This document shows, piece after piece, positions 4,648-33,614 of a stretch of DNA of 64,000 nt; positions within the stretch are counted from its first letter, which is position 1; the number at the start of each line of letters is the position of its first letter. Both the position numbers and the translations under genes were made by a program. Source of the stretch: Marsupella aquatica (Eukaryota; Plantae; Marchantiophyta); assembly GCA_973895155.1 (NCBI GenBank), contig OZ316891.1, positions 25,915,899-25,979,898 on the forward strand. The letters run 5' to 3'. The notes beneath the pieces were generated by a model. It was not told where the DNA came from. It made no database searches and was given only the letters and a program-made list of their open reading frames with translations.

Positions 4648-4784
4648 TGTGAGAATAGAATGGAATGAACATGTGTATAGTCGGGAATAGGAGTACATAT
4701 AGTGGGACCAGGGTGACCGGCTGGTCCGGTCGTCCGGTCAAAGGTAGAGTCTAACAACTCCCTACTAATGTCTTTGTACACTCA
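4648..4784 (-). repeat. Short 5' LTR (~135 bp) of the Bianca-like element
   Basis: TG...CA ends immediately outside the PBS. Outer boundary is uncertain (4780 or 4784) because the partner LTR lies outside the window. Confidence 0.6.
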
Positions 4785-5344: not shown

Positions 5345-5372
5345 GTAATCACGGTCTTGTCGACCGTTACCG
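5345..5372 (+). repeat. Left bipartite terminal inverted repeat
   Basis: GTAATCACGG (5345-5354), 11-nt spacer, GTTACCG (5366-5372). Confidence 0.7.
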
Positions 5373-8900: not shown

Positions 8901-9353
8901 TGCAAAAATCAACTTGTTCTCATCCACCACCTTTATAGGCATGCCCATCCACAAGGCCTTTGGTAAAACTACTTCCACACCAGACCGACTCTCAGTATGG
9001 TTGTTCCCATCAGAATTTTGATTGACTGGATCTTGATCATCACCAACATTGCCAAACACATCCTCCGATTCCATGGGAGCTCGAAAAAGCTGATTCCTTT
9101 CCCATACAAGGTAACCCCCAATCATGTCCTTCAAAAGTTTGCCATCTTCGCATAGAATGGCCTCGTCAAAAACTTCCTCCAATAGAAGAAGAACTCTGTC
9201 CGCCCCAAGAGGAACATTGTGACAAACCCTGGAAGGATCAAGACTTATCACGCGACCTTTTCCAACCTGTTTCTCACGTATGCCTATAATAACTTGTTCG
9301 CCTTCCCTGATCCAGACTGTCGATGTCACCATAATAATTATGATCCTGCACAT
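5964..9353 (-). CDS. Spliced Sola-like (DUF7869-type) DDD transposase with two N-terminal Tnp1/En-Spm-like domains
   Basis: ORFs 9353-7422 and 7271-5964. Motifs CCxxxCC, FSKCTTC, LIHDKMDHSKTTLP (D1), LQLDNCASDNKN (D2), FMVVGHTHEDVD (D3). N-terminal VGKGRVISLDP..CHNVPLG-type domain occurs twice. GT donor at 7444; splicing between 7444 and ~7275 is not resolved. Confidence 0.8.
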
Positions 9354-9385
9354 CAGAGAATATCACTGTAAGCGTACAGTCCTGT

Positions 9386-10036
9386 CACGTCCGTCAACTT
9401 CACTGCACTGTCCTGTCACGTCGGTCAACAAGCAGAATGTAGTCAATGCACTGAACTGCACGCGACTGGTCGCGTGACCCTAGAGGTACCACACATACCG
9501 GCAATGACTACAATCGATTACGATCAATCATTTCACATCCACTCAGAAAAAATGAGTGGACAGTACCAGTTTACCAATGAGTGGACACTGGACAGTCAGT
9601 AACTACTGAGGACTGTAAGCAATAAGCGCCAGTAAAACGTCCGTGAACTGCATTGTCCTGTCACGACCGTCAACAAGTAAGCAGAATGAAGTCAATGCAC
9701 TGTCCTGTACGCAACTAGTCGCGTGACCTTAGTCAGAGGGTGTAGGGATAATAGGGTCTACAACATAGAAGCTAGAAGCCTAGGCCCAAACTCTAGCTCG
9801 TACTTGGTACTTCAGAAGTAAGAACGATTGCGCGTGAGACAGTAAGATACAATTACGGATCTGAAGGCATCACACATAGTTACCGGCAACAGATTATGCA
9901 TGGTCAGTCAATCATTTCAAGTGAATGAGAATGACTACAATCGATTACGAACAATCATTTCAATTCCACTCAGAAAAAATGAGTGGACAGTACCAGTTTA
10001 CCAATGAGTGGACACCGGACAGTCAGTAACTACTGA
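9386..10036. repeat. Interleaved direct repeats upstream of the transposase
   Basis: ~95-bp pair (~9386-9483 and ~9637-9732), each ending in the ACGC-N6-CGCGTGA palindrome. ~107-bp pair (~9503-9609 and ~9930-10036) containing the hairpin CCACTCA-GAAAAAA-TGAGTGG. Confidence 0.85.
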
Positions 10037-10352
10037 CCCTCATAAGCAATCTCAGTACTTCACTAGCAATCAGTATTCCCGGGGCGGTCGCCAAACGTGA
10101 AATTAAATGCAAAAATTGGAGGGCAACTGAACTTCCTGCCAATTCTAATACGCGCCAGTCAAATGTGCACTCTCTTCTAGAAACCACTATGTATAGTGAC
10201 TAGTGGAGACTAAACAGTATAAAGCATTGAGATGATCCCTACTGCTCATTCCCCCACGAATTCCACTTTCTGGCTACTGGATAATCTATTCGCACATCAG
10301 CTCTCTCATTTCCAATTCTTAGTCTCGGTCCGCATCCCTTGTTTGAAGGGCG

Positions 10353-10897
10353 ATGACTACTCCGCTGAGCTCGAAGAATGAGGATTTTCCGACGGATGAT
10401 TCAGAAGATTTGACGTATCGAATTCATGGTACTCCTTACAGAACGTGTCAGCGATGTAATATAATGTTTACGGTGACTAAATCGGGTCAAATGTTTTGTG
10501 AGAGACGCCATTGTTCGCCACATTTGTCGATGGAAGATCAGATGGAGAGCAATCCGACAGAGATGACAACAAAGATGGCACCAGGGGAGAAGTTAAAGGG
10601 CAAAGCCCTCGTCGAATCCGTTTCGGGGGGGGGGAGAAGTTGAAGGACAAAGCATGCGTCGAATACATTTCGGGTGAAGCAGCAGCAGACGCTAACACAG
10701 TCAAGAAGGAGGCCAAGAAAGTGGACGCTCCGAAGAAAAGGCAATTAGAGATGAACGAAGATTCTGATTTGTATTACAGAAAGAGCAAGCCGAGAAAATC
10801 TATGGACGTTAGGACTTGGGCAAAGGAAGAATTCCTGGATTCAAGGGAATCCACACCAGACATCGATGAGTGGATGACTTCATCTTGGAATGACTGA
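10353..10897 (+). CDS. Small Cys-rich (CxxC...CxxxxC) hypothetical cargo protein, frameshifted at a G10 run
   Basis: ORF 10353 ends GEKLKGKALVESVSG. The overlapping frame continues GEKLKDKACVEYISG, an internal repeat, across the G run at 10625-10634. Confidence 0.55.
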
Positions 10898-11144
10898 CTC
10901 GATCGAAGTCTACAATATTTTGAGTATTCAAAGATTAGATCTACAGATTCAAGAGTAGTTCAAGTTAGAACTTGTTATAGATACTGTGTAGCTTAATTTC
11001 GTCCCGTGGAAAATAGTGTTTGAAAGACCAGGTCAGTTAAATTCCTGGATAGTGCTAGTGGATATGGATTCCACATCCGAAGTCCTTCGGGATCGATGTA
11101 ACCATTTTAGCAATCAAGGAAAAATCTTCCACGAGATTCCTTTG

Positions 11145-12901
11145 GCCTCTAAAACATTAACGCGACCAGGCGAAGACGTTGGTTTTAAATTAGATTGCTG
11201 GCCAATTCTCTGGGCTGTCGACTACAATAAACAATATAAAAAAGACCTGAGATAAATTGGTTCACGCAACTGTACGCGTGATGAAGTACATGTGTAACCA
11301 AAAAAAGAGGTCATCCAACTAACAAGTTGAGATCAGTCAAATCTAAGAAATAAAGCGCGATTACGTTTAAGAGTGCAAAGCTTTCGATGACCTCTAAAAC
11401 ATTAACGCGACTGGGCGCGTCATGATACAAAGACGTTGGTTTTAGAATAGATTTTTGGCCAATTTGCTAGGCTTTCGACTACAATAAACAATACATAAAA
11501 AACCTGAGATAAATTGGTTCACGCGACTTTGCGCGTGATGAACTACATGTGTAACCAAAAAAACAGGTCATCCAACTAACAAGTTGAGATTAGTCAGATC
11601 TCAAAAATAAAGCGCGATTACGTTTAAGAGGGCAGACCTTTCGATGACCTCTAAAACATTAACGCGACCGGGTGCGTCATGATACAAGACGTTGGTTATA
11701 GAATAGATTTCTGGCCAATTTGCTAGGCTTTCGACTACAATAAACAATAATAAAAAACCTGAGATAAATTGGTTCACGCGACTTTGCGCGTGATGAACTA
11801 CATGTGTAACCAAAAAAACAGGTCATCCAACTAACAAGTTGAGATTAGTCAGATCTCAGAAATAAAGCGCGATTACGTTTAAGAGGGCAGAGATTTCGAT
11901 GACCTCTAAAACATTAACGCGACCGGGCGCGTGATGATACGAAGACGTTGGTCTTAGAATAGATTGCTGGCCAATTTTCTAGGCTGTCGACTACAATAAT
12001 CAATACATAAATTGGTTCACGCGACTGTGCGCGTGATGAACTACATGTGTAACCAAAAAAACAGGTCATCCAACTAACAAGTTGAGATCATTTAGATCTC
12101 AGAAATAAAGCACGATTACGTTTAAGAGGGCAGAGCTTTCGATGACCTCTAAAACATTAACGCGACCAGGCGCGTGATGATACGAAGACGTTAGTTTTAG
12201 AATAGATTGCTGGCCAATTTTCTAGGCTGTCGACTACAATAATCAATACATAAATTGGTTCACGCGACTGTGCGCGTGATGAACTACATGTGTAACCGAA
12301 AAAACAGGTCATCCAACTAACAAGTTGAGATCATTCAGATCTCAGAAATAAAGCACGATTACGTTTAAGAGGGCAGAGCTTTCGATGACCTCTAAAACAT
12401 TAACGCGACCGGGCGCGTGATGATACGAAGACGTTGGTTTTAGAATAGATTGCTGGATAATTTGCTAGGCTGTCGACTACAATAATCAATATAACCAGAG
12501 ATAAATTGGTTCACGTGACTGTGCGCGTGATGAACTACATGTGTAACCAAAAAAATAGGTCATCCAACTAACAAGTTGAGATCAGTCAGATCTCAGAAAT
12601 AAAGCGCGATTACGTTTAAGAGGGCAGAGCTTTCGATGACCTCTAAAACATTAACGCGACCGGGCGCGTGATGATACGAGACGTTGGTTTTAGAATAGAT
12701 TTTTGGCCAATTTTCTAGGCTGTCGACAACAATATAAAAAATACCTGAGATAAATTGGTTCACGCAACTGTGCGCGTGATGAACTACATGTGTAACTGAA
12801 AAATCAGGTCATCCTCCTAACTAGTTGAGATCAGTTGGATCTGAGAAATGGACCTCGATTACGTTTCATTTTGCTACGCCGTCGACTACAATAAACAATA
12901 C
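11145..12901. repeat. Tandem array 1: about 7 units of 243-257 bp
   Basis: Unit starts at ~11145, 11389, 11646, 11901, 12144, 12387 and 12638. Most units carry two palindromes, AACGCG-N6-CGCGT and TCACGCG-N6-CGCGTGA. Confidence 0.95.
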
Positions 12902-13679
12902 CAAAATGTACGGACAACTATAATTGAACGCCATACAATTTTAGACTAGAGAATTCATTCGGATCCTCTACTAGTACTTCTGATACATTGCTTCTATATT
13001 GGACTTGAAAAACGGATTGATCAAAATCGGAGTGTGGAATTGGACCATAACTTCATTGACTCAATTCATGCATTGAATGCGTGATTTAAGGCAACTATTC
13101 TCCTCATTTATTGCGGAATTAATGCTGATTGATACTTACAAGCTATTCAGTTGCGTGTGGACTCAGCGATGTTGGCGGCAACCCTTCGATGTTGGCGGAA
13201 ACCCTCCTCCCAGCAAAGCCTCTTCCTTCCAGCGTAGCCTCCTCCTTGTCCCAGCAAACTAATCCTCCTCCTTCGAACTCCAATTTCCTTGAGTATCGTG
13301 ACCGAATCCCACCACCAGAGAATGAAACCTTGTTGATCGTATCGAGATCAAAATCCTTGACCAGACAGTGATTTCAGACTAGCCGCACTTTGTTGGTCCG
13401 CTAGAATGCTTCGATGAATGAGGCAGACTGGAGGTTCTAAATCTTTTGTCGTCCCGCTTGATTGGATGTGCCCTCCCCAAGAATGGGATACAATAAGAAC
13501 TGCGCCAGCGTTGCTTGAATGAGCTCCGCCTCCGCCTGGAATAGTCGAATGATCCAATCTGCTCCACCTCAAATGTGCCTTGGATCAGCCTCCGCTGAGA
13601 GCCCAGCTAGTATCCTGGTCAGGAGAAACTGAAAATGAAGAATGATTCGTGAGCAATGAGATCAGTCTATTGACTCCAT

Positions 13680-14095
13680 GAGGGATGTGTTCATCTTGAC
13701 TCGATTTTGATTTTGAAAATTGGTTCAGTCTCCAGTCATGAGAATCATTGTACAAAATTTGGCATGATAGCTTCTTGAGTTTTGAATTGAGTTGCTATTC
13801 AACGCGCGAATAATCATACGGATCCGGTGTTCTCCACTTCCAAAATGGATTGATTTTGAATATCGGTTCTCCCCGACCATGAGAATCGTTTGACGTTGTT
13901 TAGAGTTTGGGTTTGAATTGGCAAGATAGAGAGTGGAGTATGGATCCGGATCTGACGGTCTCCACTACCAAAATGGAATGATTTTGAAGTTCGCCTCACT
14001 CCGATCGTGAGAAACTTGTCGTTCGTTCAGATTTTGGATTTGAATTGGCAGATATAGTGAAGATACGGATCCGGATCCGGGGGTCTCCACTAACA
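13680..14095. repeat. Degenerate ~125-bp tandem repeat, about 3 copies
   Basis: Recurring TTTGAATTG...TA(C/T)GGATCCGG...TCTCCACT..CAAAATGGA.TGATTTTGAA. Confidence 0.7.
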
Positions 14096-15562
14096 ATCTA
14101 TCGCAGTCGCATAATTACCGGTTTAAATTTCAAATTGGCGATCAAATAGAAATCTCCTTTACCGGAATCCTTTTGATTTTCCGTACTAATCTTTTTTTCA
14201 CGATTGCATAGTTTGTTGAGTCGTTGGTGGAGTGTACGGAGATCATCTGGAACCTTCTTGTCGCTAGGCTGTTATTAGGGTTATGCTAAAATGATACCCT
14301 AATTAGTCGTTCCTTAGTGTCGGCGCCCACGGTCTCGAGTTCACTGTTCATTGTTGTTGATTCTCGCTCCTAGACTTTTGCGCGCCTGCTCTCGTCGCTC
14401 TCGCTCTCACTCTCGTCGCTCTCGCTCTCGCTCCTGCCTTGGATTTCATTTTTGTCGTTGCAGCTCGTTCGTCGTGGTCAGGTGCTGGTCGGCGCGTTGC
14501 AGCTCTTAGTAGTTGTCGATCGTTTCGGTCAGGAGCTCGTTGGCTCGTTGCAGCTCGCATTTACAGCTCGTATTCACTTCTAGTTTGCTCGAAGGGATTC
14601 TTAGGAGCTCGTTGGGTTCGTTGCAGCTAGTTTGTTGGGAGTGTTCGTATCAGCTCGTGTCAGCCAATTTTAAGCTCATATCAGCTCGATCAACGTGTTT
14701 CAGCAGCTTGAACTACTTTTTGGCAGCTTGTTTCAGCTCCTTTCATTCATCATTCAGGTTTGTTTCAGCTCTTTCAATCTTCAGGTTTAGTGCGCTTTTA
14801 TTCATGCTCAGTTTGTCTATCGACAGCTTTGATTGTACTTCAGGAATAGTCTTTTTAACTCGACATAATGAGTTCCATAGCATTAAGCACATGTTATTCA
14901 ATTGGCAGCAACGAAGCTCTATATAGAAGCTGTGTTGTTGTTGCTTAGCATATTTACTTTCTGGAATGCCGCAGCAAGGTCTTCAAGTGCTTGGACGTCA
15001 ATCTCTCAAACGATTACAACACTTTTTCAGAATTCAGGTGCAATTTCTACATTTTCTGCTAGTGTTGATTGTTGTTTGCTAAAATTTCTGTTGATTGTTA
15101 AGCTGAGTTTGTCTGTAAACTCAAATATGTCTGAATCATACAAACTCACTAATTAAAATACAACCTGAATTGTATTAAGTAAGTCATTACAAACCTGCAC
15201 GCTGTGAAATTTAATCATATAAACTCTCATGTTATGTGAATCTCATTACACTGAATCATTTAATTGACGAATACAACCAGTAGACTGCTAAATTGAATCA
15301 TCTTAGCTTAATCATTCTCTAAACTGAATTCCATGCAATCTGAAAACTTCTGATATATAATAGTTTCACAATGACAGAGCTCAAACATCTGAGTTATTGT
15401 AAAGTTCACAAATGAATACTAGTGTGCTTGAATCCATTCAATAAATGCATCATTGCACTTTTCTAGTTCAAAACCTCATGCTTACTCGGATTTCCCTGTC
15501 CGTATGGGTCAGTAATCACAGTTGTATCACTGTATTATCCTAGTGTCCAAAAGTGGTTTGAG

Positions 15563-16840
15563 CTGTTGACGCGACCAGTCGCGTGAGAAGATTGTGAGGT
15601 TCCATTTTAGGGTCAATTGACGCGACCAGTCGCGTCTGAGGGAGCTCTCTCATTGACTGGTTCCGTTAGAGGAGGTATGGTTCCATTTAGGACCAGTCGC
15701 GTGTGAAGGAGACATGATAGATTATTGAGTGCGTTTAGGGTTTAGGGTTTAGGTTCAGTTGACGCGACCAGTCGCGTGTGAGGTAGCTCTCTCATTGACT
15801 TGTTCTATTATAGGTATGGTTCCATTTAGGATCAGTTGACGCGACCAGTCGCGTGTGAGAAGGAGAGGATAGATTATTGAGCGCGTATCATATCCAAATC
15901 TCCACAAGGGCGGTTCAGTGGATATAGTTGTTTAGGTTTAGTTGACGCGACCAGTCGTGTCTGAGGTAGGTCTCATTGACTAGTTCTGTTAGAGGTATGG
16001 TTCCATTTAGGATCAGTTGACGCGACCAGTCGCGTGTGAGAAGGAGGATAGATTATTGAGCGAGTACCATATCCAAATCTCCACAAGGGCGGTTCAGTTG
16101 ATATAGTTGTTTAGGTTCAGTTGACGCGACCAGTCGCGTGTGAGGTAGCTCTCTCATTGACTGGTTCTGTTAGAGGAGGTATGGTTCCATTTAGGATCAG
16201 TTGCCGCGACCAGTCGCGTGTGAGAAGGAAACAGGATAGATTATTGAGCGCGTATCATATCCAAATCTCCACAAGGGCGGTTCAGTGGATATAGTTGTTT
16301 AGGTTTAGTTGACGCGACCAGTCGTGTCTGAGGTAGGTCTCATTGACTGGTTCTGTTAGAGGTATGGTTCCATTTAGGATCAGTTGACGCGACCAGTCGC
16401 GTGTGAGAAGGAGGATAGATTATTGAGCGAGTACCATATCCAAATCTCCACAAGGAAGGTTCAGTTGATATAGTTGTTTAGGTTCAGTTGACGCAACCAG
16501 TCGCGTGTGAGGTAGCTCTCTCATTGACTGGTTCTGTTAGAGGAGGTAAGGTTCCATTTAGGATCAGTTGACGCGACTAGTCGCGTGTGAGAAGGAAACA
16601 GGATAGATTATTGAGCGCGTATCATATCCAAATCTCCACAAGGGCGGTTCAGTGGATATAGTTGTTTAGGTTTAGTTGACGCGACCAATCGCATCTAAGG
16701 TAGTTCTGTTAGAGGTATGGTTCCATTTAGGATCAGTTGACGCGACCAGTCGCGTCTGATATAGCTCTCTCATTGACTGGTTCACGTGACCCAAAAAATC
16801 ACAATCTCCAAAAGAATTGTTCAGTAGACGCGACCAGTCC
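15563..16840. repeat. Tandem array 2: about 15 copies of AGTTGACGCGACCAGTCGCGTG with alternating spacers and a 367-bp higher-order period
   Basis: Core at ~15568, 15619, 15761, 15838, 15944, 16019, 16123, 16203, 16311, 16386, 16490, 16570, 16678, 16739 and 16827. Spacing 75/104/80/108 repeats (15944 to 16311 to 16678). Confidence 0.95.
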
Positions 16841-16847
16841 ATTTGGC

Positions 16848-17399
16848 ATGGGGGAACCTGGTCTGGAGAGCTTCAGATATCTATGCCCAATATTTGACGT
16901 TTTGGACAGAAGCCAAGATGGTCTACTGGCGGGATATTCTGTATTTATTGAAACACTACTACCTGGACTTCCAGATTTCATTGTCGCGGAATTGATATGG
17001 CCTCGCATCAAGGAGTCCTTGAATTCCTCGGCTAATGCAGGAAATTTCTCAATAAAGGAATTGGATGAGTTTGTAGGACTATCTTCGGTATGTCGCAGAT
17101 GGCGCCACCTTGTTGGGAATACCTATCTTCTGGGTGTAATCAAGTTGACTTTATTAGATTTGGCTTCCCCAGGAAATCCTAGTAAACCAATCCGAAATGA
17201 GTCTCTCTCATCGACAGTTCAAAGTTTCTTCCAGAAATACCCAAGAATTAAATTCATGGGGTCAATGTCCAGAGATCTAAGGGAACTCTTCACGAAGACT
17301 TACGATGCTCTTCACCCTCTTGAAAAATGGAAATTTACAGTCAGATGCCACAAAGTTGGATACCTTGAGGGTGACATCTACGCTTTTAAGGAATTCTAG
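16848..17399 (+). CDS. F-box-like cargo protein 1
   Basis: LLPGLPDFIVAELIWP...LSSVCRRWRHLV resembles a plant F-box motif with an insertion. First ATG is at 16848; the upstream TTG start lies inside the array. Confidence 0.7.
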   Translation: MGEPGLESFRYLCPIFDVLDRSQDGLLAGYSVFIETLLPGLPDFIVAELIWPRIKESLNSSANAGNFSIKELDEFVGLSSVCRRWRHLVGNTYLLGVIKLTLLDLASPGNPSKPIRNESLSSTVQSFFQKYPRIKFMGSMSRDLRELFTKTYDALHPLEKWKFTVRCHKVGYLEGDIYAFKEF

Positions 17400-17463
17400 T
17401 TAACTTACGTGACCAAGCGCGTCGTATGTATTCTAACAATGTTTTGTATATGATAAAAGTAGG

Positions 17464-18030
17464 ATGAGCCAACTTTTGAATGAGGCTCGAGATTTCCTTT
17501 CATCTCATGAAAGGAAACAAAAAACAATATGGGATACGCTGGATGAAACCTCCTCTAGTCTCATTGGAGGAATACCAGATGTTTTGGTCATTTCAAACAT
17601 TTGGCCAATACTCTACAAACACTTTATTTCAATTGAAGAAGTGCCTGGATATCGACACCCCGAGATTGATTTGGTTATGGATAGGGTCCGAGATCTTATT
17701 CGGCTTGGAGCTTGTAGCAAGAAGTGGAACTTTTTAGTTACAAATACAAGGTTATGGGCTATCCTCAAACAAGCAAACCGGATTGTTGATGTCGCAAATG
17801 ATGCTCTTTACGACATACCCAAAACTGACGAGTTGGAGTTTGACTCAGTCTGTCGAGTTATTCGACAGGATATTTCTATGCTTCCAGAAATATCTGTTCT
17901 TGGGACTACTACTTCTGACGAAATTGCATTGTTTACCAACAAATATAATAATTTAGATGAGGAAGAACGAGATGTCCTAATCGAAAGGTTTGGTAGATTT
18001 TCTCAGAATCTCGGTGGTCCCAGTTCTTAA
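17464..18030 (+). CDS. F-box-like cargo protein 2
   Basis: LIGGIPDVLVISNIWP...LGACSKKWNFLV. Paralogous to its neighbours, with a shared C-terminal LDEEER-like motif. Confidence 0.7.
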   Translation: MSQLLNEARDFLSSHERKQKTIWDTLDETSSSLIGGIPDVLVISNIWPILYKHFISIEEVPGYRHPEIDLVMDRVRDLIRLGACSKKWNFLVTNTRLWAILKQANRIVDVANDALYDIPKTDELEFDSVCRVIRQDISMLPEISVLGTTTSDEIALFTNKYNNLDEEERDVLIERFGRFSQNLGGPSS

Positions 18031-18082
18031 TTGATAGGTTCTTGTTCTTAATCTTTTCCATATTATGTTGTAGTCCTTTGAC

Positions 18083-18595
18083 ATGAATCGAAAATCTCAT
18101 CGTCAAATGATGATGGAGCGCATTGCACGTGCAAAGGTTATGAACCGAAATATGATATGGAGTCAAGCTGAAGACCTGATACCCGGTCTTCCGGACGATA
18201 TTGTCAAGAAATATATTTGGCCATTAGTCAAAGAGTTTTTCCACTGTCTTGGGAATTTGTCGGATAATGCGATTAAAAATCGCGTCATGGACTTGATCGC
18301 CATTCGGACAGTCAGTAAGAAGTGGTGCCACATAGTTACTTATAGTAGTACTTGGGCGACGGTCACCTTGGTAGCTTACGACTTCACTGATAGACCACGA
18401 TATGAATTGCTTCGAAGGTATTTGACTTCACGGAATGTAGCATTCAGATTTACAGAATCCATCAGAACTTTCCCGCCGCTGGACATTCTGGGTGGATTTG
18501 TAGGATCTGAACTTGACACGTTTAGGAACCTTTGGTTTTGGTTAGATGAAGATGAGCGAAAGGATTGGGTCAGGGAAAACGTTCCTAAAATGTAA
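18083..18595 (+). CDS. F-box-like cargo protein 3
   Basis: LIPGLPDDIVKKYIWP...IRTVSKKWCHIV...LDEDER. Confidence 0.72.
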   Translation: MNRKSHRQMMMERIARAKVMNRNMIWSQAEDLIPGLPDDIVKKYIWPLVKEFFHCLGNLSDNAIKNRVMDLIAIRTVSKKWCHIVTYSSTWATVTLVAYDFTDRPRYELLRRYLTSRNVAFRFTESIRTFPPLDILGGFVGSELDTFRNLWFWLDEDERKDWVRENVPKM

Positions 18596-18670
18596 TTCGG
18601 CACGACGCGACCATGCGCGTGTTAGTATTTTATAATAAATGTTTAACTTTCAATATTTGTCTATTTCAGA

Positions 18671-21600
18671 ATGGATCATACCGGAACTTCAAAGCGGAAA
18701 AGAGACTCGTCTAAACCTGCTTCTCAAAAGAAAGCCAAGACAAGAACGACTCCCGCGGAGACATCCATACTTGCATATCGAGGAAAGTCAATCAGAGAGA
18801 GAACAACGGAGACAAAGAGTATCCATCTCTTTGATTCAACTGAGATATCCAATCTTGGAATAGTCGTTCACAATAGGGCTGTTCGTCTTGTGGTGGCAAA
18901 AAATGATAAAGCTACAGTTTTGGAGAGATCACAAATTCTTGGGTGTTTGTTTGAGAAGAGCATGAAAGTGAAAGAGTGTACAGAGGGATTGGTTCTGCTA
19001 GTCAGCGACGACCAGCAGGATGACAAAATAAGCATTTGTTTGGATCGAACGCAATATGTAACCTTCAATCAGTCCAGAATCGATGATCTTCTAGGTGCAA
19101 GGCACGCTTTGGAAAAGGTTACTAGTGTGGGATACCCTTCCGATCCAGAGGGATCAATGGGAGATTTGATTTGTCAATACATTATTGACGTACTTGAGTT
19201 CCAAAGAGTTCCTTTCAACCAGGGATTTCGCTTGGGAAAGGCCCCCCCAGTGACCAAGGTTGAAGTATACTCGGCGGAGAATCTTCCGAAAGTCATTACC
19301 TCAGCGAATGTCGGGGCTCTGTTCGATTCTTTCCTCAAAGAATATAGTGTTGTGAATATATTTAACAGCAAGTCATTTTTTGTTGAGACATCACGTTGTC
19401 ATCTTGCACCGGACCACATCAAGTGCCGAGAGTGGAATCAGGATTACACAGATAGGCTAAAGAATTCACTCCTCTCTCATTCGGCTATAAAGTTCGAAAA
19501 GCGATGCTGCTTTTTAGTCCATATGAAGTGGGTTCAGTCGGAGGTCGACAGAGATCCCGACTACAATGGGACACCCTATGATTCGGCGCCAACGGAGAAG
19601 GACATTATGACCAGTCATTTTTGGATACTCGGAGGCCAGCACACAATAATGGCGTACAAGTTGCTGAGGATGGACGACAAAGTCAGCCAAGTTGTTCGGG
19701 ACGCATGCGGTACAGTAGAAGCTGTAATGTTTTGGGCAACTCTCAACAACGACAATAATGTTCATTTGATGGGACTATCGAAGGCTCTGAACCACTGTCA
19801 TCAAACATCAATGGAAGAAGGACAGTTTCTCACCATTGTACGTCAGTGTCGTAATATCTGGAACTCATTCGGGCGGCCTGGATCACATTATCGTCATCCA
19901 AATGGGAAGGTATATAAATAACCCTCTTCCCTAAACCCTAAACATTATCTTTTAAATGTTTTCTCACGCAAATGGTCGCGTCAATCTTAGAATATTCATG
20001 TTTCCATTGTTTTTCAGGTATTTATGAGAGCTACGAGTTTTGTTTGCCCATGGGCTCAAATGGGGAAGAACGAAATGATGAAATTTGGAGAATTGGCTCC
20101 ATTTCTCTTTACAATGGAGGACGAAACATTCAAGAAGTGGATGGAGGTCTACAAACTATCAAGGACAGGAGAGCTTGTAATTTACAACGGAATTTTACAG
20201 AGAGACGCCGTCAAAATTGCGGATAATCCCTGTGCTTATCATCTCCTTAAGAAGACGTTCCGTTCTTGTCAAGGGTGCTTGGACTCGGTTCTTGGAAAGG
20301 CAGCGGAATATATGTTGAGCGGAAGACTATCTATACTCAAAAACCGAAGTATCAAAGTGAAATCTGGGAAGGCGAGGAAGTCCTCTGAGGCTCCGGTGTT
20401 GTCAACGACCAGCATGAGTTTGGAGCAATTCTGTATAAAGAAGAAGACGAAAGTTGAGTTTGAGATTTTATTATTGAGTAAACTCAACGGGGATACATCC
20501 ACCCGGACGGAGCTGAAAAGTCTGACAGATTCAGCGCGGAAATTGCGGGTCAACGGAATGATTGATCGCTTTAAGCTCGACAAGATGGTGCTGAAGCAGT
20601 TGAGAGATGCGTTGAGTGGTTATCTGAAGAAGTGCTTAAATGTAAATATTAGTAATGATAATTCGTTGAAGGAGATCGACCCGATATTCTACAGGTTGGT
20701 GGAAGGAATACAAAAATCAGTTGATAGTCAAGGAAACCAACTAGTGCGGCCGGTCGGTGAGAGGCTGAAATTGCGATCCCTGCAGGATATACAAAATGCT
20801 GGGTTTGCAGACTGTATCATACGTGAAGACAAGAACCTTGCGAGCTTGATTTATTTTGATCCCTCATCAATGGGAGATTTGCGTCCGCCAAATTGCTCAT
20901 TCTATGAGGGGTTATTTCGTGCTACTAGCAAGATAGGGGCAAAACCACACCATGTGGTTATTATTGTAGCCTCTCCCGTTGAGTCTTATTTAATCAAACG
21001 GGAATTAGGGAAGTACACACACTATGTTGCTGTCGATAGCCATTATATTCAGAAGCGGCCAAAGGAGAAGAAGCTTATTGTAACCTACGCTTTTCACAGC
21101 TTGGCCTTCAGCACAATGGGCGATCCACAAGCCCTCGAGTTCCAGTTGGTCTCCAAATATCGGATTGATAAGATAGCCAATTTTGAAGAGAGCGGCGAGT
21201 TCACGACACCTTCCCCAGAAAAGATACTTCCATTCTTTGAAAGTATTGTTAGTCAATTCGTCCAATGTGGGGAATGGGCTATATGCTTCGGCGAGGGAAC
21301 GAACTTGATCCAGTGCCTAATGGTAAGTTTTGAGATTTATATTTTGGGGTTTCGATTTTAAGATTATTTGGATTTTCATATTCTCAATTAATATTGTGAA
21401 CTAATTTTGGCTTGTTTTACAGGATGCTGGATCCAATGTAAAATATTACTGCCCTGTGGCAACGCATAAGGAGTTGTCTTATTTCTTGCAACACACCACG
21501 GCGACAATTGATACAATGCTGTCATTGATTGACCCAATACGGGCTAGTATAGAAAAATGTATAGATAAATTAATGAAGTACCGTCCATCTGTAACTGCTC

Positions 21601-23387
21601 TCAGGGCTGATGTCTTGGATGTCCTCCACGAACAACATATCCCAGATAATATTTGTAATCAATTATTGCAAGAGTATGCCCTCTTTGAAGATTCCAATCG
21701 ATTGTACATTCGACCAACGGAGTACCCTCGTGGGCCATTCCAAGGTAGGTTACTTTTGAACCCTCTTACTTTTTCTTGGGTCACGCGAACATGCGCGTGG
21801 ACATTCTCAACATTTCTTTCTAATCTAAAAATCTGATTTTCTTCAGATCAAGTCGAACACGGCTCCAATGTTGAGGATGCAGGGAGCAATGGTGATGCGG
21901 ATGGTAAGGGGGAAGGAGACGTGGAAGGTGACGTGGATGGGGATGTCAATGACCAAGATCCAGAGTGGATGACCGATACCCAGAATGACGTCGGATATTC
22001 CGACAAAAGCGAGGAAGAGAGTGACGGAGAGGAGATGAAGGACGCTGAGGACGCTGAGGACTCTGATGAAGAGGCCACACAGGAGCCTCATCATGAGGCG
22101 GACCAAGAGGAGGCGGCCCGGCAGGAGGACGCCCGGCAGGAGGCGGCCCGGCAGGAGGCGGCCCAGCAAGAGGAGCTTCAAAAGAAAGAGGCGGCCCGGC
22201 AAGAGGCGGCCCGGAAGGAGGACGCCCGGCAGGAGGAGGCCCGACAGGAGGAGGCCCGACAGGAGGCTGCCCGGAAGGAGGAAGCCCGGCAGGAGGAGGA
22301 GGCCTGGCAAGAGGAGGCCCGACAAGAGGAGGCCCGACAAGAGGCGGCCCGGCAAGAGGAGCTTCAAAAGAAGGAGGCTAAGAAGAAAAAGGCGGCAGCT
22401 AGAAAAGCAACTGCCGCAAAGAAGAAGGAAAAAGCCGACGCTGAGAAAGCCCAGGCGGAAAAAGCCCAAGCTGAAAAAGACGAGGCGGAGAAAGCCGAGG
22501 CTGAGAAAGCCCAGGCTGAGAAAGCCAAGGCTGAGAAAACCCAGGCTGAAAAAGACCAGGCGAAGAAAGCCCAGGCTGAGAAAGCCCAGGCCAAGAAAGC
22601 CGAGGCCGAGAAAGCGGAGGCGAAGAAAGCGGAGGCGGAGAAAGCGGAGGCTGAGAAAGCCCAGGCTGAGAAAGCCCAGGCTGAGAAAGCCGTGGCTAAG
22701 AAAGCCCAGGCTGAGAAAGCCCTTTTAGTGACCGAGGAAAATAGGGCCGAGGCGGAGAGTGCCGAGGCGGAGAGGCTGCTGGCCGAGAGGATGGCGGACC
22801 AGAGCGAACAGACCGCAAGACCGGAGAGGGAGGAGGCGGAGGAGGCGCAAAAGGTTGATTCCGCAAGACTGGAGAGAGAAGATACCGCAAGACTGGAGAG
22901 GGTGGAGGCGGAGAAGGTACAGGCAGCGAGGAGGGAGGCCGAGAGGGCCAAGGATCTTTCGCTTATTCCTGAAGCACAACGTCTACCGAAAATAAAGCTG
23001 AATTTGAAGAAGCCTTCTTCACCCTCGGTTGCAGTTAAGAAGAAAATATTAGACTATTTTCTTCGGCCGGAGTTTGAGTTTAACGATCCACCCTTAAGAA
23101 CGGTCTCGTTGGATGATTGGAATAAATATTCATCGGAGCAGCTCCGAGTCCAGGCTGTCTTGGCTTTGCAATATTGGAAGGGTCTTTTGATTACCGAGGA
23201 GAAGACTTCCACTGCATCCAGAATGGAGACAATCATCAATAATGTCCGATTTTCCGAGAATCGAGTGCAAGACCTGGGAATATCTCTGGCACCAGACTCG
23301 GCTCAAGTCGTTAAGAGACTAACAGCTGAGTTGACACGACCGGGTTTGTGGTCTCGACCCCGATATACTACAGAGGTCACTCGTGCG
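18671..23387 (+). CDS. Large four-exon cargo protein: ParB/Srx-like domain, degenerate N6/N4 DNA-methyltransferase-like domain, acidic tract and pentapeptide helical repeats; native C-terminus now inverted at 23443-23690
   Basis: Phase-compatible GT-AG introns at 19910-20017, 21323-21422 and 21745-21846 join four ORFs. ParB-like motifs CREWNQDYTDRLKNSL and FWILGGQHTIMA. MTase-like motifs LIYFDPSS and EKILPFFESIVSQFVQCGEWAICFGEGT. Confidence 0.72.
22105..22722 (+). repeat. Coding 15-bp minisatellite encoding (Q/K)EAAR/QEEAR then KA(Q/E)AE pentapeptides
   Basis: GGCCCGGCAGGAGGA-type and AAAGCCCAGGCTGAG-type units in frame within exon 4. Confidence 0.9.
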
Positions 23388-23423
23388 CTCGGGGGGGTCA
23401 CTATATGGAGGGTCATACATCGC
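23388..23423 (-). mobile_element. 36-bp terminal fragment of a CTCGGG-type MITE in reverse orientation
   Basis: Perfect reverse complement of 23983-24018. Confidence 0.9.
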
Positions 23424-23442
23424 TATGATAGAAACTTTAAGC

Positions 23443-23690
23443 TTATAGCTTGCGGATGACCTTTGGATTGGGTGGATCCGGCCTTTTCGCAGCTGATCTC
23501 TTGGGTGCCTCCTTCGCAACAACATCCTTCAGCCCTCCTCGAGCCCGCAGTGATCGCTCCAACGGACCAGTTTGCGAAGGTTGTAGCGATGAGGCGGGAA
23601 GACCTTCGAATGGTTGTGGCATTTGATTTAAATATTCAACAATCTGGGAATCCAATTCCAAAATATCCGGGGCCACAATTTCCGCGCGAG
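23443..23690 (-). other. Inverted native 3' end of the large ParB-like gene
   Basis: The minus strand begins CTCGCGCG, matching CTCGTGCG at 23380-23387 at 7/8 positions. It reads in frame ...EVTRA-EIVAPDILELDSQ...PKVIRKL*. Confidence 0.8.
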
Positions 23691-24018
23691 CTCGGGGGGG
23701 TCACTTCCACGGAAGTGACACATCACGTGCGACGAAGTATAGGCCCATTTAAATGGGTGTGGCAGAAGACTTCCAAAGTTTGGTGGAAGAACACATAGGG
23801 CATGTTTTATTGATTGGTCGACTTTAAAGAACACATAGGCCTATTTAATTGCAAAAAATACTTTCTATAAAGTTTTTAGGGGTTTTTTAATAAAAAATGA
23901 CAAAATTTTAAGAAAGAAAGGGCTTTGCAAAAAATTATTTTTCACTTTAAAGTTAGGGGGGTCAAACCCTAAAACGTCGCACGCGATGTATGACCCTCCA
24001 TATAGTGACCCCCCCGAG
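23691..24018 (+). mobile_element. ~330-bp MITE with CTCGGGGGGGTCACT TIRs; family makes 8-bp TSDs
   Basis: TIRs CTCGGGGGGGTCACT...AGTGACCCCCCCGAG. Related copies at 38741 and 42783. Confidence 0.88.
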
Positions 24019-24033
24019 TTTCGAATGGTACAG

Positions 24034-25293
24034 GTTGAAGTCTTAACAGAGCAGATGGAGACGGCAATCTTAGCAGACATTGACCATCAGCTGACCTATA
24101 GCCATGGATGTCAGAAGCGCTTGGCGTTCTTTTGTCTTGTCAAGTTGGGTTTGAGAGGAGGAGGGGAAATATGGAACTTGCATCGCAATGATCTGAAAAC
24201 CTGTCTGGACAAAGCAGGCAGGGAGTATGTCATGTAAGTATCCTTTTGAATCACTAACTTAACAAGTTTTTTCTTTCTGTGATCCCTGACTGCTCATATT
24301 ATGTGGTTTTCGTGTTCAGGTTTGAAGAGAGGGAGAGCAAAAACAACTCGTACACACTTCAGAAGTACCAAGAGGAGTAGTTTCGCAATGTCTTCCATAG
24401 TTACGATGAAGACTTCTTGATGACGGTGAAGCAGTACAAGCGGCATTTGCCACCTGAAGCAGAGACCGAGAAGCCTGACTTGTTCATGCAGGCTGTCACA
24501 AATCCAGCAGGGATTGTTTGGTACAACAAATGTCACAAGGTCGGGAGAGATACAGCTGGTAAGTGGCTAAAAAATATGGCTCTACTAGTAGGATTGACAC
24601 CTGAAGTATTCACCAATCGCAGTGGGAGAGATACTCTCATCACCCGAATGGCTGCTCGTGGAGTTCCTGATGAAGTTGGTATGCTAATCAGTGGACACCA
24701 TTCCACTGGGGGCTATTTGAGGTATGATCGAACACAGAGATTGAAGATGGAAGCAACTACATTAGTGTCTAGCAATCCTGCTCTGGATTACGAGAAAGCC
24801 TTGTCACATGTATCAAAGAAATTTGTTGCAGAGGAGCTGGTCGGATCTTGTTCTGGTTTGAAGCCGCTTGTAAGCAGGGTGAGCGAGAACTCTAATCTGC
24901 CGATGGCCATTACGAATCTCTTGCAGGTAAGTCGATGCAGTACTTTCTGATTTCTTGTGACTTGTTTACTGTAATCTCATTTTACTTATTCCTGCTATGA
25001 ATTGGCAGGTCCGAGAGGAACAACATATGGAGGAGAAAGGTCCTACAAATAGTTCGGATGGTTCAAACAGCAAGAGGTCGAGATGGGAGAGAAATTATGA
25101 CAACTTTGACTGGGAGAATGCAATTCTGACCAAGGATCCAGAGCTGTTTAAGAGAATGTCATCGCTACCGAAGTCACCACGTTCAGTAGGAAGTAATATG
25201 TCAGGGAATGCTTTCCATAATTGTAGTGTGACCATCAAGTTTGTTCATCCGAACAATGAGGAAGACAAGGAGAATAGTGTAGGTCCAAGCTAA
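24034..25293 (+). pseudogene. Crypton-type (DUF3504-like) tyrosine recombinase, 5'-truncated, with an in-frame stop
   Basis: Exons 24034-24233, 24320-24926 and 25009-25293 joined by phase-compatible GT-AG introns. Motifs LGLRGGGE (R), ESKNN (K), FTNRSGR (HxxR position), ISGHHS (H), YLRYDR (Y). TAG at 24378-24380. Confidence 0.85.
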
Positions 25294-25919
25294 TGGTGTA
25301 GATAGTGATAAGTCTCCATTGTTGAGACAGAGTTCTCATGTAGTCAGGCTAGTTATACAATTGCTTATACAGAATTATCCAGTAACTGTTCTACTGATTA
25401 TACATTTATCATGAACCTGAAGTATTCTTTTGTCACGTCATTTGGATTGATCAGTATTTTGGTCACCTTTCAATAAAACGGAATGATTTTTGTACATGAA
25501 ACTGTTTGAGTCTTTTGTGACCAAATTGTGTATACACTTTCCGTCTGGATTGTCACAAGAAATCACTATCAGCCATGACACAGAAATAAAACCTGCCAAG
25601 AAACACAAGCCGAGTGTCGCCCCCACTGGAAACCAGAACAGACGATGCTCCTATTGAGAAAACAGAAAAGGAGAAAAAGGATTGGAATAGCCATGATCAA
25701 GAGTAAACTGGCAACTGAGAAATGTATGTTCTCCGTTGAAAAATATGCCTTGTCCATCCACTCCTTATCCCTTTTCCATCCACTCCTTACAGGACTCCGT
25801 AAGGGCATTATGAATTTCCGTCAAAGCATTACAGGGTTTTGTAAAGGAATTATGGATTTTTGTTGTGTCAGGATGGAATATTATGGTAATGGGCATAATG
25901 GACGGAAAGTTTCACCCAA

Positions 25920-25948
25920 CGGTAACCGCACCACCAACCCGTGATTAC
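25920..25948 (-). repeat. Right bipartite terminal inverted repeat
   Basis: CGGTAAC (25920-25926), 12-nt spacer, CCGTGATTAC (25939-25948). Confidence 0.7.
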
Positions 25949-28166
25949 GTGTCAGCTGGGCAAGGTTTAGTCGCTCGATTTTGTGATTATTAGCAGGGAT
26001 AGGACCTCGAGGGGCTTAGCATCTTTTTATACCGCGAGTGATCCAGACCTAGTTAAAATACACCTACTTTAGAACAAGAATATTCTGTATTTTTGTGTGT
26101 TGTAACATCCTATATTATTTCCTATTCTTTAAAAAACTGTAGTTGTTAAAACAATATGAATATAGTTGTTTTAGATCACTCTTGTTCCAAGTTTTTGGAA
26201 ATTGACCTTTGAGGATAGTACCTCCTACCATAGACATGCAAACTATATAGTAAGTTGTCTACTAATATTCCTAAAATGTTTTTCTCATAATTTTAACCCA
26301 AACCAATAAACTACGGCAGCCCAAGGGACTACCAACTCTACTATCAATCTATCACGTGGCAAAAGTCACCCAAGGACCACCATCTCGACTATCCATCTAG
26401 CACATAGCAAAAAGCTACCCAAGGAGCAGCATCACAAGTATCAATCCTTTTATTTGTATCTTAATATTTGCCTTTGACCAAAATAGAAAGTTTGACTGTC
26501 TATCTCTTCAACCCAGACCATCATCTCGACCACTCTGGTTTTCCATCACCTTGACCATGCCTGTTGATAACGGCCCCTTTCATTTCAGAGAACATAAGTT
26601 TTTTGGTTTCTTGCATGAGAGATTTACACTATTTGCTTCAAAGTATCATGAAACAACTTGGATATATTTGTTAAATCAAACTGTCTCGATCCCTCGATGA
26701 GGTCTATATGGGAAGGATACATTATCCTTTAACTCTTTCTCGTTGAGTCATCTCCTACAAAAGGGGCAGGAGATTTATGAAACATTTACTCGTCCCCTTC
26801 CCTTTCATATACGAATCTTCTCCATGGTGAAATCCAGTCTGTATGGTTTCCAATGTGATGAAACAACTTGGAACTATTAAATGAATCAATTTGCCTGGAT
26901 TGGGATTCTTCTCCTCCCCGTTCTACCCAGGCCTTCCAGCATCACCATTTAGTTTTTTAAGTCTGTTAGTTTGGATGAATAATCCTTTCCCTCACTGTCC
27001 GTTCCTTTGCATATGACTATGAGCCAGAGGAACAAACTAATATCATCTCACCTGCACTAGCTGCTCTAGGTTCGATAGTCTCAGCTAGTTGGTCAGTTGG
27101 TCCGCACTATGCAGATTGAGACTTCAGAGAAAAGAATACAAGTCTAGAGGGGGCCTTTGCATGAGACTATACATAGCATGCAGATGGTCTCACAAAGTGT
27201 CATGTGAAAATATATGTAGTACCATTCATTCCAGAAGTAGCCCTTCACAATGAGCGCTTTCATGTAAAGGTGAAATGAGACCTTTGTCAGAAAATCAACG
27301 TTGAAGGATCCTTTGTGTCAAGAGCAGTCTGTGCATTTTTTTGGATCACCTTTGAGTCCAGTAATGTTTTAATTGACAGGTGAATTTTCATTTCAAATTG
27401 ACTCTTGTGAAGATTCCTTATCCCACCTTGAAATACTCCTTTGTTTTGGTGTAGGGGTTTGGAAAAATAATAATAGTCAATCAAATCGCCACATTAAGTT
27501 CAATGAAATCGTCTTGTCAGGTATAGATGAAAAATGCATGAGAAATATTGCATGGCCCTCCCTAAGGTCAGGAAGTACTATCTTACAATCTTAGATCTTA
27601 ACAAGCAGACTTGAGAGACTCTGGAATTCGATTCCGACTCACGACTAATTTCAGTCTGGAGGAGAGCAACATTTGTGGACTGCACAAAGATCCTTGAACA
27701 TTTCATTCATTGCTACAAATTTGTAAGCATAATTGATATTTACTATTCCAAGGCAAGACTGATAGATGTTGCAAGCAGAATACAAAGTGAGGCTCGTGAG
27801 ACTTTACGCATCATCTGAAGAGCCAGCCCCAATTGCACGAGACGTTTGTTGCCGTGGCATGACATGCCATTGAGTACCTGCACTTTCCGGACTGTTTTTC
27901 AATCTGGGTCGAACCCCAATCTAGCTTCACATTATGTAGACTGTTAACCTGAAATCTGTGGGTAAACTCCATTCGCTTGCTCCAATTGAATTATAAATTC
28001 ACTAGCCTTCTGTTGCAAGACTTCCATCACAGTAAGGCTTCCTTCACAGTAACGGTTCTATTCAAGAGTCCTAAAATCCTTAGCACTTTGACGTGCTGTC
28101 AATATATAGCTAATTTTTACCCCACAAATCAATTCTGAAGAATCCTAGTCCGTGAGTGGGGAGTGT

Positions 28167-33385: not shown

Positions 33386-33614
33386 ACTAGGCTTCTCAGT
33401 TTGTTGGCGAGTGGTGCTCTAGTTCTTTTGTCATTGTTGGAAACTTTTGGGCTCTATGGCTCGTTGGAAGTTCTCAGTTTTACTGCGTTTTAGCTATTTG
33501 ACCTTTTTCAGTTTTTCCCTTGTTTACTCCCTTTTATTGGGTCTTCTGTCTTTGAGGTACTTTTATCTTGTCTCTTGGTTTGATAATTTTTGTTCTTTGG
33601 CAATGTGATATATT

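Follow-up and report, generated by a model that had tools for sequence, protein, structure and literature searches.

A ParB-like gene with a degenerate methyltransferase-like domain, probably cargo of a multi-copy DNA transposon in Marsupella aquatica

Two arrangements that bear on the gene reported here are already known from algal transposons: ParB plus methyltransferase accessory genes (Ectocarpus Sola1-1) and ParB genes beside inverted-repeat arrays (red-algal Plavaka). In Ectocarpus, the giant DNA transposon Sola1-1_Ec32 (about 20 kb) carries an accessory gene for a ParB-like and N4C/N6A methyltransferase protein of 1,104 aa on the strand opposite to its transposase, which is best matched by that of the moss element Sola1-1_PPa, and an action of the protein on its own element was proposed, according to the sections of the paper devoted to this element (PMC12477816). 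In Bostrychia, the relevant part of a preprint describes PAG3, a ParB domain on a 2OG oxygenase, and PAG2, a separate N6A methylase with a SET domain, in elements that have a Plavaka/EnSpm transposase and inverted-repeat tandem arrays, and self-binding was proposed there earlier (bioRxiv 10.1101/2025.02.11.637652). In Arabidopsis, the passages of PMC5735166 on VANDAL transposons report that VANC, whose function was proven by experiment, causes a local loss of CG methylation, and that VANC21 binds motifs of 8-9 bp, which are non-palindromic and lie both in the tandem repeats and in the introns and intergenic regions of the element that encodes it.

Giant eukaryotic elements also include the fungal Starships, tyrosine-recombinase elements with conserved DUF3723 cargo in the part of the preprint concerned (bioRxiv 10.1101/2021.12.13.472469). 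Bacterial-type beta-class amino-methyltransferases likewise occur in eukaryotes as MpDN4MT1a/b of Marchantia and N4CMT of bdelloids, which are active host genes with an intact SPPY in the portions of the two sources that cover them (bioRxiv 10.1101/2021.02.12.428880, PMC10406627); ParB is unmentioned in that portion of the Marchantia paper. Phage fusions of ParB with N6_N4_Mtase (for example L108, L114, L122 and L125) have the same predicted domain order as the plant protein described below, but they lack introns, are about 400 aa long, have an intact GxxR, keep [DS]PP[YW] in 8 of the 9 long ones and show no significant similarity to it. Green-algal cases were reportedly described by Iyer et al. 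in 2011.

Here, we analysed a stretch of 64,000 nucleotides from M. aquatica (the window) that holds a ParB-like gene, of which we found no land-plant description among the literature titles and abstract openings bearing on novelty, and which is likely a land-plant version of the self-marking accessory genes known from algal transposons. Going by the sections cited above, it shares with the Ectocarpus gene the setting, here a probable one, in a giant DNA transposon, the strand opposite to the transposase, the predicted order of ParB-like and amino-methyltransferase domains and the proposed action on its own element. It differs in its land-plant-type host, in its length with an acidic and repeat tail, in the F-box-like cargo and palindrome arrays next to it and in the erosion of Box II and motif IV, the algal protein being described as a predicted methyltransferase; the two are likened by description, not by sequence. 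With the red-algal elements it has in common, on the evidence of the same preprint part, a ParB-like cargo gene beside arrays of inverted repeats. What is new is a palindrome that is confined to the element, its isolated copies in non-coding gaps and a contrast in CpG content.

A four-exon gene and its related copies

The frame of the ParB-like gene, from its ATG at 18671, is open across all four exons (Table 1). The gene model holds, although it had been given too short: the earlier note had let the gene end at 21744, which is the donor site of exon 3. It had rightly reported three frame-compatible introns of about 100 bp, which have GT-AG borders. These introns and their splicing are predicted from sequence, and two features of the homologs support them: P0001 and P0002 begin where exon 2 starts, and P0001 continues into the intron with an identical "MVS" read-through. 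In variant contigs over 20650-21500, for which 40 of 79 variants were listed, 5 of the 5 listed indels lie inside intron 2. The repeats of exon 4 form two blocks of 5-residue units, and its frame stays open past the TGA as far as 23798. Ahead of the ATG, 18592-18669 is a possible additional intron.

Table 1. Positions of the main features in the window
Feature	Positions	Strand	Remarks
DUF7869 DDE-type transposase gene	5967-9353	-	1,065 aa open; one predicted 192-nt intron (7253-7444); PF25273, E 8e-37
Two isolated palindromes (9460, 9709)	9460-9724		upstream of the transposase gene
Tandem array 1	11171-12866		~250-nt units, 6.8 copies, 13 palindromes
Tandem array 2	15555-16760		179/188-nt units, 12 palindromes
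Three tandem, mutually homologous F-box-like ORFs	16848-17399, 17464-18030, 18083-18595	+	E 0.002-0.02, below the Pfam cut-off
Isolated palindrome	17407-17422		between F-box-like ORFs 1 and 2
Isolated palindrome	18605-18620		66 nt upstream of the ATG
ParB-like gene, whole	18671-23459	+	four exons, 1,492 codons/aa, three GT-AG introns (predicted)
Exon 1 (aa 1-413)	18671-19909	+	basic NLS-like N-terminus, then unknown region, then ParB-like domain (~aa 240-380)
ILGGQHT, ParB Box II-like motif	19625-19645	+	Thr replaces the GxxR arginine; P0003 identical
Intron 1 (predicted)	19910-20017	+	108 nt, phase 0; telobox-like repeat at 19933, palindrome at 19966
Exon 2 (aa 414-848)	20018-21322	+	conserved helical (predicted) middle region, followed by the greater part of the methyltransferase-like domain
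LIYFDPSS, degenerate motif IV-like site (aa 690-697)	20846-20869	+	DCSV in P0001, DSTL in P0002
CFGEGT, degenerate motif I-like (SAM-binding) site	21284-21301	+	without the D of DxFxGxG
Intron 2 (predicted)	21323-21422	+	100 nt, phase 0
Exon 3 (aa 849-955)	21423-21744	+	AGSN at its start
Intron 3 (predicted)	21745-21846	+	102 nt, phase 1; palindrome at 21783
Exon 4	21847-23459	+	acidic stretch, EEARQ and AEKAQ 15-nt repeats, C-terminal part; TGA 23457-23459
Right-hand break	23388-24018		high-copy MITE-like element (23691-24018) and inverted 36-bp copy of its end (23388-23423)

Searches for homologs of near length returned three proteins (P0001-P0003; 47-54% identity), which keep the frame and lack PP[YFW] (P0001 and P0002) or the Box II arginine (P0003). 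A search with exon 1 among longer proteins gave 0 of 2,985 candidates, and no relative was found in the viral, phage and metagenome collections searched. None of the 35 listed coding variants creates a stop and no coding indel occurs among the 40 of 79 variants listed. With 15 synonymous and 20 non-synonymous changes among these coding variants (pN/pS ~0.56, p 0.07), the signal of purifying selection between copies is weak.

Domain leads and eroded motifs

The reading of the earlier note as a ParB-like domain joined to an amino-methyltransferase-like domain stands as a pair of leads: family clusters in the ESM Atlas, hhalign registers that fall on the named motifs and the published algal Sola1 fusion speak for it, and none of the tests reached significance. 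For the ParB-like region, ILGGQHTIMA was found in place (aa 319-328), the upstream spacing is R-x8-RLKNSL (R253, R262) and not x7 as had been stated, and the Atlas gave a ParB_N cluster at 0.91 (the family being carried by 35% of its members). The best Atlas match was DUF3723 (0.95), and the Pfam model of this family did not match the protein. We know of no methyltransferase-like domain in fungal DUF3723 proteins. Pfam ParBc_2 (E 0.089) and PHROG ParB (E 0.37) were not significant, and an hhalign comparison with 19 phage ParB domains reached 14.0, within the shuffle range (maximum 18.4), its best register placing GQHT on the GHGR of phage ParB. The AlphaFold model of aa 215-413 from a single sequence was too poor for use (mean pLDDT 37.7): fold searches with this low-confidence model listed no ParB, Foldseek with the low-pLDDT models gave no match at E<=0.001, and the best VIA-align hits of such a model were unrelated small folds (Z 5.4). 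Taking these leads together with the precedent, we consider a ParB-like fold of the exon-1 domain likely. Aligned to phage ParB, aa 414-650 reached 22.7 with two input sequences and 20.9 with three, with 1 of 60 shuffles scoring above this; we dropped this apparent match because it leaves no GxxR in register. This middle region is predicted to be helical in the low-confidence three-sequence model, and profile and fold searches identified no helix-turn-helix in the protein.

For the methyltransferase-like region, the motifs listed by the earlier note were all located, namely LIYFDPSS, the later long stretch EKILPFFESIVSQFVQCGEWAICFGEGT (aa 814-841, confirmed in the sequence) and AGSN. The 10 best family-bearing Atlas matches were all N6_N4_Mtase clusters (0.88, under the tool's 0.9 line, with scores that are not calibrated for protein parts). 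Against a beta-methyltransferase alignment, hhalign gave 21.2, in the motif X/I register, and 1 of 60 shuffles exceeded this; the unrelated ParB region reached 19.2 against the same family, and another 12 fusion C-termini, taken as a separate set, scored 16.7 in another register. Global alignment gave 4.0 versus up to 8.6 in shuffles, hmmsearch with the beta-methyltransferase profile found nothing, NCBIfam gave no match and PDB sequence searches no meaningful one; the three-sequence AlphaFold model of exon 2 (mean pLDDT 38.0, below 50 in the methyltransferase part) was too poor for use. A methyltransferase-derived fold remains, on leads and precedent, reasonably probable.

The motifs themselves are eroded. 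The catalytic [DNS]PP[YFW] is replaced in all three sequences compared, each time differently, it is not restored by any of the 40 variants listed out of 79, and related copies carry P695S at LIYFDPSS; the motif I-like site reads AICFGEGT in the window and SVCFSEGK in P0001, one residue short and missing its Asp. In the structures of N4CMT and CcrM, the target base is touched by two motif IV residues, the Pro and the aromatic one, as the structural part of PMC10406627 states, and the Box II arginine, absent from the window sequence and from P0003, is required for NTP binding in the ParB/Srx fold in the portion of PMC12704722 concerned. If the domain calls hold, both active sites would be eroded (GxxR to GQHT; DPPY to DPSS, DCSV or DSTL), and the earlier suggestion of a catalytically dead protein fits the sequence and its homologs, in which the proposed check turned up no intact DPPY (P0001, P0002) and no intact FxGxG (P0001).

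A multi-copy element with its own palindrome

At least 15 kb long, the multi-copy element around the gene also contains three F-box-like ORFs, two tandem arrays and a transposase gene on the opposite strand, which is transcribed away from the ParB-like gene. The transposase has a C-x2-C motif as well as HDKMD, QLDNC and GHTHEDVD, which we take to be its DDE site; the label Sola1 for this element is our assumption from its motifs and the Ectocarpus precedent. In run X1, the summed contig depth, which is not a copy number, was about 3,000-67,000 over 9000-24215 compared with 31-76 over 25484-28000, and a corresponding step was seen in runs X2 and X3, with many variant contigs in all three; relative to the neighbouring host region, the excess is some hundredfold for X1 and tens-fold for the other two runs. 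The part of the element covered by these data is 9000-24215, and depth drops steeply past the right-hand break. A comparison of 3301-7000 with 22901-28000 revealed neither terminal inverted repeats nor a target-site duplication, the right end of the window copy being broken by the MITE-like element. A tyrosine-recombinase fragment (24019-24950) was rejected as the mobilising gene: it has far lower depth, no N-terminus and one in-frame stop. From these leads and the precedent, transposase and cargo probably make up one element. The spliced frame of the "spliced plant gene" of the earlier note is retained as a prediction, and the gene is more probably transposon cargo than a host gene, given the transposase and the multi-copy depth.

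The CGCG palindromes of the earlier note proved real and far above chance: ACGCG-N6-CGCGT occurs 33 times in 5601-24015 and not once in the other 45,585 bases of the window, compared with a mean of 0.1 and a maximum of 2 in 200 dinucleotide shuffles, and the spacer length of 6 is specific. The 16-bp palindrome has two 7-bp arms (ACGCGAC-CA-GTCGCGT), and the candidate site sequence, a putative binding site, is ACGCGACCAGTCGCGT. In the gene-dense part (16846-23690), 4 of 4 isolated copies lie in non-coding gaps, which make up 7.3% of it (p ~3e-5, computed after the pattern was seen), two of them in the introns of the ParB-like gene. The CpG observed/expected ratio is 0.31-0.32 in the transposase exons versus 0.72-1.41 over 9354-23690, and at codon positions 3-to-1 it is 0.26 (transposase) versus 0.78; this contrast could reflect age or origin, because ratios of 0.75-0.9 are seen in unrelated parts of the window too.

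This layout of palindrome and CpG resembles the VANDAL/VANC anti-silencing system, for which, in the passages cited above, a short motif in tandem repeats, introns and intergenic spacers is described; here too the motif is gathered in non-coding regions and tandem repeats, and the corresponding function is putative. There is no sign of homology to VANC, the likeness being one of motif layout, not of direct sequence comparison. Palindromic 16-bp sites in cis, a trait of canonical ParB, are likewise present as putative sites, and a role of the ParB-like protein as palindrome reader would fit the motif placement.

A possible self-marking cargo protein and its alternatives

We tentatively propose that the gene is accessory cargo, carried by a giant DNA transposon whose transposase is of the DUF7869 type, and that its product, a ParB-like domain joined to a dead beta-class methyltransferase-like domain, would bind the element's own palindromes and help to shield the motif-bearing part from silencing by host CG methylation. 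It may be that the protein contacts the two arms as a dimer, by means of its helical middle region; the arrays and the lone copies in introns and intergenic DNA would serve as loading points, and the protein would shield CG sites or bring in host factors, as VANC does for VANDAL. It would be a binder and not a writer of 4mC or 6mA. We regard as rather unlikely a more specific version, in which a phage-type ParB-methyltransferase was turned into a dead, parS-style clamp that marks the palindromes, those in the gene's introns included, and keeps them free of CG methylation, with the F-box-like trio as a second arm directed at host silencing factors.

The binder could also be another protein. The transposase or a host factor such as CAMTA, whose CGCG box presumably matches each half-site, might bind the palindromes, leaving the ParB-like protein some other job, for instance as a scaffold or condensate via its long acidic and repeat tail. 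We find this doubtful. Motif copies do flank the transposase as well (9460, 9709 and a two-mismatch copy at 5686), three isolated copies sit upstream of ATGs like promoter elements (17407, 18605, 9460), and no DNA-binding domain was identified in the ParB-like protein; yet transposase sites would be expected near the termini whereas the arrays sit well inside the element and the introns of the ParB-like gene hold single copies, the fixed 6-base spacer points to a dimeric binder, and ParB genes beside inverted-repeat arrays recur in red-algal elements.

At least one of the two domain calls may be wrong, the motifs resembling the known ones by chance in a transposon protein that is peculiar to the lineage and folds differently. 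This would agree with the absence of any significant HMM, profile or fold match and with an uncalibrated methyltransferase score below 0.9, but we think it unlikely, two separate regions having each given the predicted family in the published N-to-C order, with best local alignments on the predicted motifs. An active methyltransferase with an altered motif, writing 4mC or 6mA on the element as proposed in Ectocarpus, might account for CpG retention if it placed an N4 mark on CG sites. All 3 sequences retain the Asp of motif IV, and conservation in the domain is similar to that in the remainder of exon 2 (33-55% in stretches of 40 aa, compared with P0001). The divergent loss of PP[YFW], the P695S copies, the base-contacting role of the missing residues and the shortened motif I make this quite improbable. 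The locus might instead be a single-copy host gene that arose by domestication, or else DNA of phage or bacterial origin in which introns were read by mistake. The open 1,492-codon frame and plant-like introns would suit such a reading, but the excess depth in all three runs with its variant contigs, the adjoining transposase and arrays, the intron boundaries common to homologs and the empty viral, phage and metagenome searches leave it very little room.

The self-marking cargo proposal can be approached directly: the element offers a precise candidate site, a near-intact gene and a CpG footprint, and the idea is therefore open to a simple binding assay. If it is not true, the locus adds one further cargo gene of known architecture. 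If the dead-clamp version were true, it would be an anti-silencing system independent of VANC, and a lineage of ParB-like cargo may reach algal transposons and the DUF3723 genes of fungal Starships. If the proposal is true, it would provide a sequence-specific tool for guarding DNA from methylation and represent a second kind of plant transposon anti-silencing besides VANC.

ParB-like gene within a repeated element

The earlier note had proposed a spliced gene in which a ParB-like domain is fused to a degenerate methyltransferase-like domain. Its motifs and introns are present in the sequence, but the gene end that it placed at 21744 is merely the third splice donor, exon 4 running from 21847 to 23459, so that this observation was confirmed in part and also extended. 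Once joined, the four exons can be read through without a stop for 1,492 codons; GT-AG splicing is predicted for the three introns (108, 100 and 102 nt). Exon 2 has two homologs, at 54% and 49% identity, and both begin at the exon-2 boundary; one of them (P0001) ends with the same intron read-through as exon 2 of the ParB-like gene. One exon-1 homolog is 47% identical overall and 50-70% identical across aa 201-400. All five indels listed over 20650-21500 in contigs from four public sequencing runs fall inside intron 2. Exon 4 contains an acidic stretch and two blocks of 15-nt repeats. Since the frame stays open beyond the TGA (23457-23459) until 23798 and since exon 4 includes an inverted 36-bp copy of the MITE-like element's end (23388-23423), the 3' end of the gene is probably damaged in the window copy.

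Features of the window
Feature	Position	Strand	Evidence
ParB-like gene, exon 1	18671-19909	plus
ParB-like gene, exon 2	20018-21322	plus
ParB-like gene, exon 3	21423-21744	plus
ParB-like gene, exon 4	21847-23459	plus
DUF7869 protein gene	5967-9353	minus	E 8e-37
MITE-like family	23691-24018
MITE-like relative	38733-39018
MITE-like relative	42786-43056
Tyrosine-recombinase fragment, spliced	24019-24950		PHROG integrase, E 5e-4
Copia-like LTR retrotransposon remnant	48-4700	minus	ORF translations and repeats, by eye
Copia-like LTR retrotransposon remnant	33600-38500	minus	ORF translations and repeats, by eye

Very probably the gene belongs to the cargo of a transposon. In public run X1 the summed depth of contigs, which was measured from 9000 rightward and is not a copy number, was about 3,000-67,000 over 9000-24215 versus 31-76 over 25484-28000. 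The step recurred in runs X2 and X3 and was absent in X5 (small word share), and thousands of variant contigs matched the element region; depth contrast and variant contigs together fit a repeat family. The DUF7869 gene, in which one intron is predicted, has an open frame of 1,065 aa, and its product carries C-x2-C, HDKMD, QLDNC and GHTHEDVD, which we take to be Sola/CMC-type DDE transposase motifs. Two tandem arrays and three homologous F-box-like ORFs separate it from the ParB-like gene. We infer that transposase and cargo form one element because of the depth over 9000-9633 and the motifs common to both; searches around the element found neither terminal inverted repeats nor a target-site duplication.

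The three tandem F-box-like ORFs (16848-18595; 21-26% identical to the first) have an insertion within the F-box motif and could possibly be decoys or degraders of host factors. A possible 78-nt GT-AG intron (18592-18669) contains the palindrome at 18605. Its removal would bring F-box-like ORF3 into one frame with the ATG at 18671 and yield a protein with F-box, ParB-like and methyltransferase-like parts; the stretch could just as well be a promoter, with an intron in the 5' UTR. Short minus-strand ORF pieces in 12900-15200, five of which were compared with Pfam and gave no match, may make up one or two more cargo genes with introns, and a small plus-strand ORF region (10347-10897) has an acidic and basic product with no Pfam match. 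The MITE-like family is of very high copy, with imperfect 44-bp terminal repeats starting CTCGGGGG, and the tyrosine-recombinase fragment, presumably Crypton-like, is low-copy by depth, lacks the N-terminus and has one in-frame stop.

Domain calls and active sites

Both domain calls are likely, mainly because two regions independently return the predicted families in the ESM Atlas, in an order already published for an Ectocarpus transposon (PMC12477816). For aa 643-848, the ten best matches that carry a family were all N6_N4_Mtase, at scores (0.87-0.88) that the tool rates as a lead only. For aa 215-413, the list is headed by fungal DUF3723 (0.95); eukaryotic clusters without a family name also reach 0.95, and rank 26 of 30 is a ParB_N cluster (0.91; family in 35% of members). 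Fungal DUF3723 is described in one preprint as a conserved Starship cargo gene (bioRxiv 10.1101/2021.12.13.472469); a literature search for DUF3723 together with ParB found no paper.

The interpretation given in the earlier note is supported in part. The profile matches were not significant. The ILGGQHT region stayed below threshold (Pfam ParBc_2, E 0.089; PHROG ParB family, E 0.37) and, when compared with 19 phage ParB domains, stood opposite IIAGHGR at a score inside the shuffle range. Using a beta-class alignment of YhdJ relatives (33 non-redundant sequences, less one partial sequence and any whose length was not within 220-360 aa), the best local match placed TTPSPEKIL...WAICFGEG opposite HPTQKPEAL...IVLDPFAGS at a score of 21.2, which 1 of 60 shuffles exceeded, an unrelated region reaching 19.2. 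Hmmsearch with a beta-class methyltransferase profile found nothing, global alignment to these enzymes scored no higher than shuffles, and the register was a different one with a second family set. Structure models of the ParB-like and exon-2 parts were too poor in quality to judge the fold.

If the registers are right, both active sites have apparently been lost, making the protein a doubly dead version. The Box II arginine position is Thr in both available sequences; replacing this Arg in ParB-fold proteins is reported to have abolished NTP binding (PMC12704722). Motif I of the methyltransferase-like domain lacks its Asp, and motif IV, which reads DPSS in the window gene, was also degenerate when the exon-2 homologs were checked for an intact DPPY (DCSV, DSTL). 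Related copies from X2 and X3 show the variant P695S. Of 79 differences, 40 were listed, and no change among these brings PP[YFW] back. The 35 listed coding differences comprise 15 synonymous and 20 non-synonymous changes and no stops (expected synonymous share 30%; pN/pS about 0.56, p 0.07), which is weak evidence of constraint on the gene.

Palindromes and a possible anti-silencing role

Allowing one mismatch at most, there are 33 copies of ACGCG-N6-CGCGT within 5601-24015 and none in the remaining 45,585 window bases (mean 0.1 across 200 shuffles); half-site spacers other than 6 gave at most 7 matches inside the element. Because the majority of copies are array duplicates, the isolated palindromes weigh most: the four in 16846-23690 (17407, 18605, 19966 and 21783) all lie in non-coding gaps, which make up 7.3% of that span, and two of them sit in introns 1 and 3 of the ParB-like gene. 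Two of the six gaps carry no palindrome. CpG o/e was 0.31-0.32 in the motif-free transposase exons versus 0.72-1.41 in the motif-bearing part, and codon position 3-to-1 CpG numbered 14 (53.8 expected) versus 42 (54.1 expected), a contrast that is no more than suggestive, because 0.75-0.9 is also reached elsewhere in the window. The CpG step is sharp and close to the transposase start codon, where the strongly depleted coding region (0.31) adjoins CpG-rich cargo. Telobox-like AAACCCTA/TAGGGTTT motifs occur at 7292-7335 in the transposase intron, at 15736-15750 in array 2 and at 19933, inside the first intron of the ParB-like gene.

We tentatively favour, at somewhat less than even confidence, a reading in which the ParB-like protein would bind these palindromes without catalysis and, once bound, would protect the regulatory part of the element against CG-methylation silencing. 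The analogy is with VANC, whose target motifs are reported from the introns, the tandem repeats and the intergenic stretches of VANDAL elements (PMC5735166); the palindromes likewise lie in introns, intergenic DNA and tandem arrays of the element. It is somewhat less probable that the palindromes are bound by the transposase or by a host CGCG-box factor. With the Atlas matches on one side and the profile scores on the other, an error in one or both domain calls appears unlikely; an active methyltransferase domain, given motifs I and IV as aligned, is more doubtful still, and a host gene, set against the depth step, would be very surprising. Within the favoured non-catalytic binding, a parS-style clamp by which the dead ParB-methyltransferase would mark its own palindromes, as anti-silencing independent of VANC and with F-box-like helpers, is a rather speculative version.

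In red-algal Plavaka elements, one preprint describes a ParB-oxygenase gene that adjoins inverted-repeat arrays and proposes self-binding (bioRxiv 10.1101/2025.02.11.637652), and a review mentions eukaryotic adenine methyltransferases linked to ParB, with inactive ones on DIRS elements (PMC4738411). What is new here is a land-plant-type, apparently doubly dead version of this known architecture, and the near-intact element supplies a defined candidate target site for the ParB-like protein.
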